Assembly: GCF_056712565.1 (NCBI RefSeq)
Contig: NZ_CM160072.1
Direction: 5' to 3' (one strand)
DNA: 64,000 nt
Part shown: piece after piece, positions 50,446 to 52,078 of the stretch
Position numbering within the stretch: position 1 is the first letter of the stretch
Layout: each line of letters starts with the position of its first letter
Translations under genes and position numbers: made by a program
The notes under the pieces: model-generated
Seen by the model: the letters and a program-made list of their open reading frames with translations, nothing else
Databases searched by the model: none
Told to the model about the DNA's origin: nothing

Positions 50446-51030
50446 TTACTCCGGATATTTAAAAATTACGTAGGTATGCGAAGGGCAGAGTTTGTTAAGC
50501 ACACATTCGACGACGGTGTCGCCCCAGATACGCAGCGCGGAATCACAGGGATCGCCACATGTCATCCAGGTGCTGTTGGTGGCGGCTGGCATGTTGACCT
50601 GCCAGTAATACCGCCATTCCGGCGCATTCACCGCGTCAGTACAGGCCGATGAGCAGGTGAACGTGCTTTTGTCGTATCGCGTGATGGTGGCGTCTGGTCT
50701 GCCCAGGGCAGCAAGCTGTGCAAGGTAAAAATCCTCATTGATGCCGCCCGCCAGGTTAACCTTCGCATCCAGTCGTTGCTGACGCTGGCGAAGGGTCTGT
50801 GTTCCTGCGGGAATACATTCATCCGGCAGGCCGCACAGACGCTCCCAGCGATTTATCAGTTCGGTGGTGGTGCGCGGATCCAGCTCCCGCATCAGGGCAT
50901 CCGCACGCTGATGAACGCGGGTTAATGACTGTGCCGCACCGGCAATCGCCGGATCGCTGGCTGACCACGCCGGACCGGGCGGCAGCAGTGCCGACAACAG
51001 ACGGATGTAATCATCGTTTGTCACGCCCAT
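50446..51030 (-). CDS. Mu gp48-like tail protein (DUF2313-like)
   Basis: 194 aa between baseplate J and tail fibre genes. Confidence 0.55.
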
Positions 51031-52078
51031 GAAATCGTCCCCAGAACCGCCAGTTCATTTTTTGCAATGGAGATATTTTCCGCCGGTGCAAGCAATTGAT
51101 GGCTGTATTCCCCGTTCGCACCGGAAATCGCTTCACTGATACGCGACACCTTCAGTTCTCCCTGCGGATAACCATCACGCAGCAGGAACGAACGCAACTC
51201 CGCGGTGATGGCAGCCCGTATTTCCGGTGTATCCGGCGTCACACGGATATGAAAATCCACCGTATGCGCACCGGCCTGAACACATACAAATCAGAGCCTG
51301 CCACCGGGGCCAGTGGCCCGATATGTTGTCTTGCCGCCGTTTCCGTTGATTCTTCCGGAATGGGATTAATCAGGTCACTGCTGGCAATCATCACACCGAC
51401 AGTCCCCGTTCCCATCCAGTGACGGTATGCCCATGCGCGGGTAATGCCGGGCAATTCTTTAGCCCAGACAACATAGTCCCCGTCAGCCCCGCCCTGAGGC
51501 GTCCAGTAATACCGCTCAATGACGCGGGCGCGCCACGTTTCCAGCTCTTCAGTATCAAATCCACCTGTCAGAGTGTCTGCCACGCCGGAAGACGGCAGAC
51601 CATTAACCGGCGTGACCAGGATTAATGACGTACCGTCGTCAGCGTTACCGACCGCGCCTGCACTTGAGCAGGCGATCGGCACGCGCAGGACACCACCGGC
51701 GCTGGTTGCATCGGCAGTTGCCGTGTACTGAATCAGGTCATCGCGCTGAATAACACTCCCGGCGGTCACCTTCAGGCCATCGCTGACGCCTTCCCAGCGC
51801 ATATACCCGCTGGCAGTCGTGGCCCCCTTGCGCGGACACCGTTTCATCGCAGCATGTCGCGCCAGCCAGGACTCATCGCACAGGTCAGGCAGCATGTTCA
51901 TTGCCAGATAATCGATGTACCCGTAAACCGTATGCAGCGCCGCCGCATACACCTTTGCCCGCACGTCTTCATCCATGCGCCGGAGCGTGTCGCTGACGTC
52001 CAGCCTGGCGAATAAATCGTTACGGAGCATACTGATATTTTCTGCCAGCGTCGGGCGCTGAAATTCACTGTCCGCCAT
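51021..52078 (-). pseudogene. baseplate J-like protein (Mu gp47 family) interrupted by frameshift near 51275-51295
   Basis: 279-aa ORF (51239-52078) and 79-aa ORF (51021-51260) overlap in different frames and together cover a J-like protein. Confidence 0.55.

Follow-up and report, generated by a model that had tools for sequence, protein, structure and literature searches.

The window, a stretch of 64,000 nucleotides from contig NZ_CM160072.1 (E. coli, assembly GCF_056712565.1), carries a prophage tail module of Mu type in which the baseplate J-like gene is broken between two reading frames. The features on which the analysis rests are listed below.

55503-57338, minus strand: tape-measure gene with a second inactivating lesion, CAG to TAG at codon 110 of 612 (57009-57011)
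53038-54117: gp44-like, Mu-type baseplate gene
52490-53038: gp45-like, Mu-type baseplate gene
52065-52493, minus strand: gp46-like wedge protein/sheath initiator, the intact upstream neighbour (Pfam GP46, E=1e-32), overlapping the gp47 start by 14 nt
51021-52078, minus strand: the whole baseplate wedge gene (Mu gp47/baseplate J homologue), a pseudogene of 1058 nt as against 1059, defined by its ORFs, Pfam, comparison with the intact allele and the RefSeq label on identical sequence
51242-52078, minus strand: 5' reading frame, 279 aa, made up of 270 correct residues and the nine-residue out-of-frame tail RIRWIFISV
51268-51270, minus strand: 1-bp deletion, one G of a GG pair (intact GGTGGCGC, window GGTGCGC), the sole in-gene difference from UTI89
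51239-51241, minus strand: premature TGA stop in the shifted frame
51021-51260, minus strand: 3' reading frame, out of register, corresponding to the C-terminal Baseplate_J_C (dimerisation-type) domain, intact residues 274-352
50446-51030, minus strand: gp48-like wedge protein YmfQ, the intact downstream neighbour (Phage_Mu_Gp48, E=1e-26), overlapping the gp47 end by 10 nt
49699-50442: fibre gene
48036-48158, minus strand: stump of a Pin-type serine invertase, 41 codons annotated, with the 42nd and a stop following, as against about 190; annotated as "incomplete; missing C-terminus"

The ORF listing recovered two minus-strand ORFs in different frames, 51239-52078 (279 aa) and 51021-51260 (79 aa), exactly as the first-pass annotation had placed them. 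The 279-aa ORF matched Pfam Baseplate_J (E=3e-44) over profile positions 2-206 of 255, while the intact allele covered positions 2-255, and both scored far above the PF04865 gathering threshold of 21.1 bits (151.6 and 175.1 bits, respectively). The 5' frame product thereby retains the N-terminal helices and the middle domain. The 79-aa ORF gave no match in Pfam-A; it was identified by matching the C-terminal end of UTI89's intact protein (352 aa) at 100% identity and by the precomputed gene-caller label of an equivalent 73-aa ORF in another assembly, Baseplate_J_C (PF26079). The first seven residues of the C-terminal domain are still encoded by the 5' frame. Together with the structural matches and the 1-bp deletion described below, these results bear out the earlier reading of the pair as a single baseplate J-like gene: the two ORFs are one Mu gp47/baseplate-J gene split by a 1-bp deletion, and not a chance pairing.

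By sequence, fold and synteny, the gene is a member of the Mu gp47/baseplate J/T4 gp6 wedge family (PF04865). The intact allele aligned with solved Mu gp47 (9ki1_H) over residues 7-351 versus 4-359 (E=1e-37). An AlphaFold model built with 47 homologues (mean pLDDT 75, pTM 0.43) predicts helices at the N-terminus, a middle region rich in beta structure and, at approximately residues 264-351, a C-terminal alpha/beta unit modelled with confidence; in this model, from which the domain boundary is taken, residue 270 falls within that unit's first hairpin. Foldseek ranked Mu gp47 (9ki1) first (E=2e-24), followed by phiCD508, diffocin Tri2 and T4 gp6, and for the C-terminal part the fold matches included the isolated R-pyocin PA0618 domain 5ces (89 aligned columns) and 3h2t. 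As is usual in the family, the gene lies between a gp46/gp25-like and a gp48-like gene; its start and stop overlap with these neighbours. A functional member would possess an uninterrupted ORF of ~352 aa including the C-terminal domain; since the frame breaks after residue 270, the window's gene is a pseudogene of this family, for which JGI uses the name "gp47/JayE".

Base-by-base comparison with the UTI89 gene (WP_000785328.1; 352 aa, annotated as intact) located the indel that the first-pass annotation had proposed to find by alignment. UTI89 reads CCGGTGGCGCAT where the window reads CCGGTGCGCAT, with 100% identity over the remainder of the gene, so that the two alleles agree at every base except the missing G. 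The loss falls at nucleotide 811 of 1059, in codon 271 of 352, and its exact position is ambiguous within the GG pair at 51268-51270. After residue 270 the frame is shifted, and nine wrong residues precede the TGA at 51239-51241. The earlier estimate of the frame change, 51275-51295, overlaps the 52-nt zone in which both frames are open (51239-51290), but the deletion itself lies 5-7 nt outside that range. Two frameshifted RefSeq pseudogenes, QQA28_RS06565 and ACSYBC_RS17735, are base-for-base identical to the window's gene with no difference, and RefSeq (PGAP) labels the identical allele in APEC E16002 and AH21G053 as "baseplate J/gp47 family protein, frameshifted". The frameshifted allele is thus already known from the public annotation of sister genomes and is nothing new in kind.

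Megablast of window positions 50900-52200 against 5,426 complete E. coli genomes detected the locus in 1,400, with 11 genomes at 100% over 1,301 bases and many others at 99.9% over 1,302 bases. An 80-nt probe for the deletion matched exactly in 11/5426 genomes (ZJ3920, SF-468, Z0117EC0054, MS15052, APEC E16002, E18006, E18055, 10035004-3, AH21G053, AH19D088 and UID2404240036), which differ in submitter, host and country, and the intact 81-mer matched exactly in 154; in this probe search the locus was carried by about 820 genomes. The exact 279-aa product with its out-of-frame tail was present in 369 public contigs from NCBI, ENA and Logan, for example those of E. coli H252 and HVH 104, and in 619 index blocks. 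Clusters of 260-282 aa proteins, considered as natural short forms or as the same truncation, proved to be N-terminally cut partials from contig ends.

Because the deletion is common to 11 complete genomes and 369 contigs, it is an inherited allele and not an error of one assembly. A base-calling error in a gene that is really intact would be the obvious suspicion, as assemblies err most often by single-base indels, and the per-base accuracy of this one may be questioned in view of the tape-measure amber, which was sought in 901 locus-carrying complete E. coli genomes and was absent from all of them. However, the homopolymer artefact against which the first-pass annotation had cautioned does not apply to a GG pair, and neither the 11 complete genomes of varied origin nor the contigs from three collections carrying the exact truncated protein would be expected from such an error; we give this explanation almost no weight. 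The hosts of the carriers are humans, chickens and a dog on several continents, a breadth that might also suggest a hotspot mutated on several occasions, possibly as a reversible on/off switch for tail production. Against this, the site is a GG pair and not a repeat of the contingency type, no more than 11 of the roughly 820 genomes with the locus carry the exact allele, and all carriers with a stated serotype are O1/O2:K1:H7. Over the 13.8 kb of structural genes at 50200-64000, moreover, the indel and the private amber are all that separates UTI89 from the window, and for E16002 and AH21G053 it is the amber alone. Recurrence is therefore exceedingly improbable, whereas this near-identity fits a single recent origin followed by clonal spread. 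From the identical flanks and the strain types, we infer that the frameshift arose once, recently, in an ST95-like lineage, for which the 1-bp deletion may serve as a marker.

The geometry of the break also raises the question of recoding, or of a protein that works in two pieces. A -1 ribosomal frameshift at any point within 51239-51290 would bring the ribosome back into frame, and this overlap zone contains two single-tRNA slip sites (T TTG and T TTC); nevertheless, a slippery heptamer of the form X XXY YYZ was sought in this zone and none was found, and the downstream RNA fold is unremarkable (MFE -32.6 kcal/mol, z = -1.7 versus mononucleotide shuffles). The frame break is not conserved either. 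The gene is one continuous frame in about 800 other genomes and in ~98% of carriers; homologues down to about 60% identity are all 352-355 aa; and a single frame also runs through the alignments of SfIV and SfII (97-98% identity), of Mu and of about 200 other phage records. The conserved programmed frameshift in relatives that had been raised as a counter-explanation is thus not present, and since the relatives read through in one frame and the slippery site is missing, programmed recoding is rejected. Reinitiation is suggested by a GTG start that overlaps the premature TGA (GTGA, 51239-51242), and in the model the break falls just ~8 residues into the C-terminal domain; yet it cuts a predicted beta-hairpin, and neither candidate GTG restart (51260 and 51242) is preceded by a convincing Shine-Dalgarno sequence. 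Because the GTG at 51242 overlaps the TGA, low-level reinitiation could yield a separate 73-aa C-terminal piece, but a functional two-piece protein is unlikely, and we regard a working product, as one chain or as two pieces, as highly improbable overall. The preferred reading therefore remains that of a gene disrupted by an inherited deletion.

The window ends within the portal gene, and the whole element was therefore viewed in relatives. The prophages of UTI89, with the intact allele, and AH21G053, with the frameshift, possess an integrase, the ymfK/ymfT/ymfL regulators, replication genes, Q, holin, lysozyme and lysis genes, as well as terminase, an HK97-type head and a Mu-type tail. Judged by the annotation of these two genomes, the gene names (ymfK/ymfT/ymfL/ymfR/ymfQ/tfaE) and the 97-98% identity of the gp47 homologue to that of SfII/SfIV, the prophage is an e14/SfV-like temperate myophage with an HK97-type head, a Mu-type contractile tail and an invertible fibre segment, on an island that starts at ssrA. 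The literature searches turned up no study that characterises this prophage.

The first-pass annotation had described a decaying prophage on the basis of the split gene, a truncated pin and a TAG in the tape-measure gene. The latter two lesions were both recovered, the amber at 57009-57011 and, by annotation and translation, the 42-codon pin stump; decay is thus confirmed, albeit at an early stage only, as the prophage of AH21G053 is nearly complete. The window differs from AH21G053 by one substitution in 21.3 kb, the tape-measure amber, which is a sequencing error or else a mutation confined to this isolate. The pin stump, which adjoins a GmrSD-type gene, is common to UTI89, APEC E16002 and AH21G053. 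APEC E16002 has an IS1 next to a truncated DUF2303 gene (L003 9577-10344) and has lost the entire prophage region for regulation, replication and lysis. This loss of the early and lysis genes was considered as a companion of the frameshift and discarded, as a probe for the IS1 junction matched only 3/11 frameshift genomes (ZJ3920, E16002 and E18006), which makes the IS1 deletion a later, separate event. The distribution of these lesions points to an order in which truncation of pin preceded the gp47 frameshift, followed by the tape-measure amber in this genome or the IS1 deletion in three relatives; the near-completeness of the prophage in AH21G053, the nearest relative, suggests that all of them are recent.

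Compared with UTI89 and APEC E16002, the tail-fibre/assembly-protein segment at 48220-50158 (1,939 bp) lies in the opposite orientation. A 20-bp crossover site of Gin/Pin type stands at either end (48220-48239 and 50139-50158); the two are inverted repeats (AAACG/CTTGGTTTGGGAGAAG) with one mismatch. Both orientations occur among otherwise identical ST95-type genomes; the window's junction was found at 100% in 22 genomes, and AH21G053 is the only one of the 11 frameshift genomes to share it. As the adjacent invertase is a 42-codon stump, the inversion either occurs in trans or is older than the truncation. A search for a second invertase found two Pin-like loci in some ST95 genomes and one in others.

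Further features were noted around the start of the island. The tmRNA gene ssrA (40562-40924, tag ANDENYALAA) has a ~190-bp copy of its 3' region (40883-41077), with 90% identity, about 43 kb away beside glaH (L005 43344-43533). ssrA and this copy look like att-type boundaries around the prophage and a block of other genes. A 1,331-bp insertion at 41362-42692, ~440 bp downstream of ssrA and absent from AH21G053, is flanked by a 5-bp target duplication (ACAAC) and has what we take to be IS2-like ends. A defence-type cluster at ~43500-47934, between ssrA and the tail end of the prophage, comprises GmrSD (DUF262), a LEM-3-like GIY-YIG nuclease, a DpnII/MboI-like protein and a dinI pseudogene; the GmrSD-like gene (46045-47934, plus strand) starts about 100 bp past the end of the truncated pin frame.

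The likely consequence of the deletion can be read from the homologous baseplates. In Mu, each wedge contains two copies of gp47, which form the core bundle and an inter-wedge handshake (PMC11915804), and in the T4 gp6-type triplex proteins it is the C-terminal domain whose dimerisation between wedges builds the iris ring (PMC10996793). [quoted passage not shown] The loss of the G at 51268-51270, with translation ending nine codons after residue 270 of 352, leaves a product with the N-terminal helix and the middle domain but without the C-terminal domain of ~80 residues. Such a protein could presumably still enter the core bundle, but would not link the wedges. If the wedges are not linked, there would be no baseplate, no polymerisation of the tail and no infectious particles. 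Because the deletion removes the C-terminal domain, tail assembly should fail, and we infer a tail assembly defect from the truncation of gp47. Grundy and Howe reportedly found in 1985 that Mu amber mutants in baseplate genes produce heads without tails.

We consider it very probable that an e14/SfV-like prophage has here acquired a real and heritable mutation that abolishes the function of its gp47-type baseplate wedge gene. The comparisons above show directly the deletion itself, its presence in many genomes, the uninterrupted gene of relatives and which domain is lost; the loss of function would follow from homology. Infectious particles are therefore not to be expected from this prophage in this strain, which is useful for the prediction of inducible phages in ST95-type ExPEC; the significance beyond bookkeeping is small. 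The prophage is otherwise near-intact, the allele has reached hundreds of assemblies within a single ExPEC lineage, and the fibre segment still flips despite the invertase stump. A more far-reaching explanation holds that the allele is therefore no neutral debris and that disabled tail assembly was selected, for example as an escape from prophage-induced killing with the linked defence genes kept, or else that a two-piece gp47 reinitiated at the GTGA works; we think this very unlikely, and continue to favor simple loss of function.

Damage to the same gene has also occurred independently elsewhere. Fusion proteins of mostly 483 aa (440-483), representing ~91% of gp47 plus gp48, were found in E. 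albertii, Salmonella, Shigella and E. coli (P0005-P0011); they are products of an internal deletion across the gene junction in other lineages.

Among characterized systems, Mu gp47 (baseplate wedge protein 2, BW2; PDB 9ki1) is similar to the intact protein in its full-length homology and is its best fold match, and the gene order gp43-gp44-gp45-gp46-gp47-gp48-fibre-assembly protein-invertible segment is likewise that of Mu. In contrast, the identity of gp47 is only about 28-30%, the head module of the window's prophage is of HK97 type, and its gp47 is truncated at residue 270. T4 gp6, R-pyocin PA0618 and diffocin CD1371, the triplex proteins, share the fold class but show only 8-18% identity in structural alignments, and T4 gp6 is nearly double the length. 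The closest functional relatives in culture are SfII and SfIV, Shigella serotype-converting myophages of e14/SfV-like type, which combine a Mu-type tail with an HK97-type head and whose gp47 homologue has 97-98% amino acid identity over the whole length; their own gene is intact, whereas the window's copy is one G short and a pseudogene. A parallel in decay is jayE of the cryptic K-12 prophage e14, a decayed baseplate-J gene of the same prophage family adjoining ymfQ, tail-fibre genes and a pin invertase. jayE would represent a larger truncation in a far more eroded element than the prophage described here.
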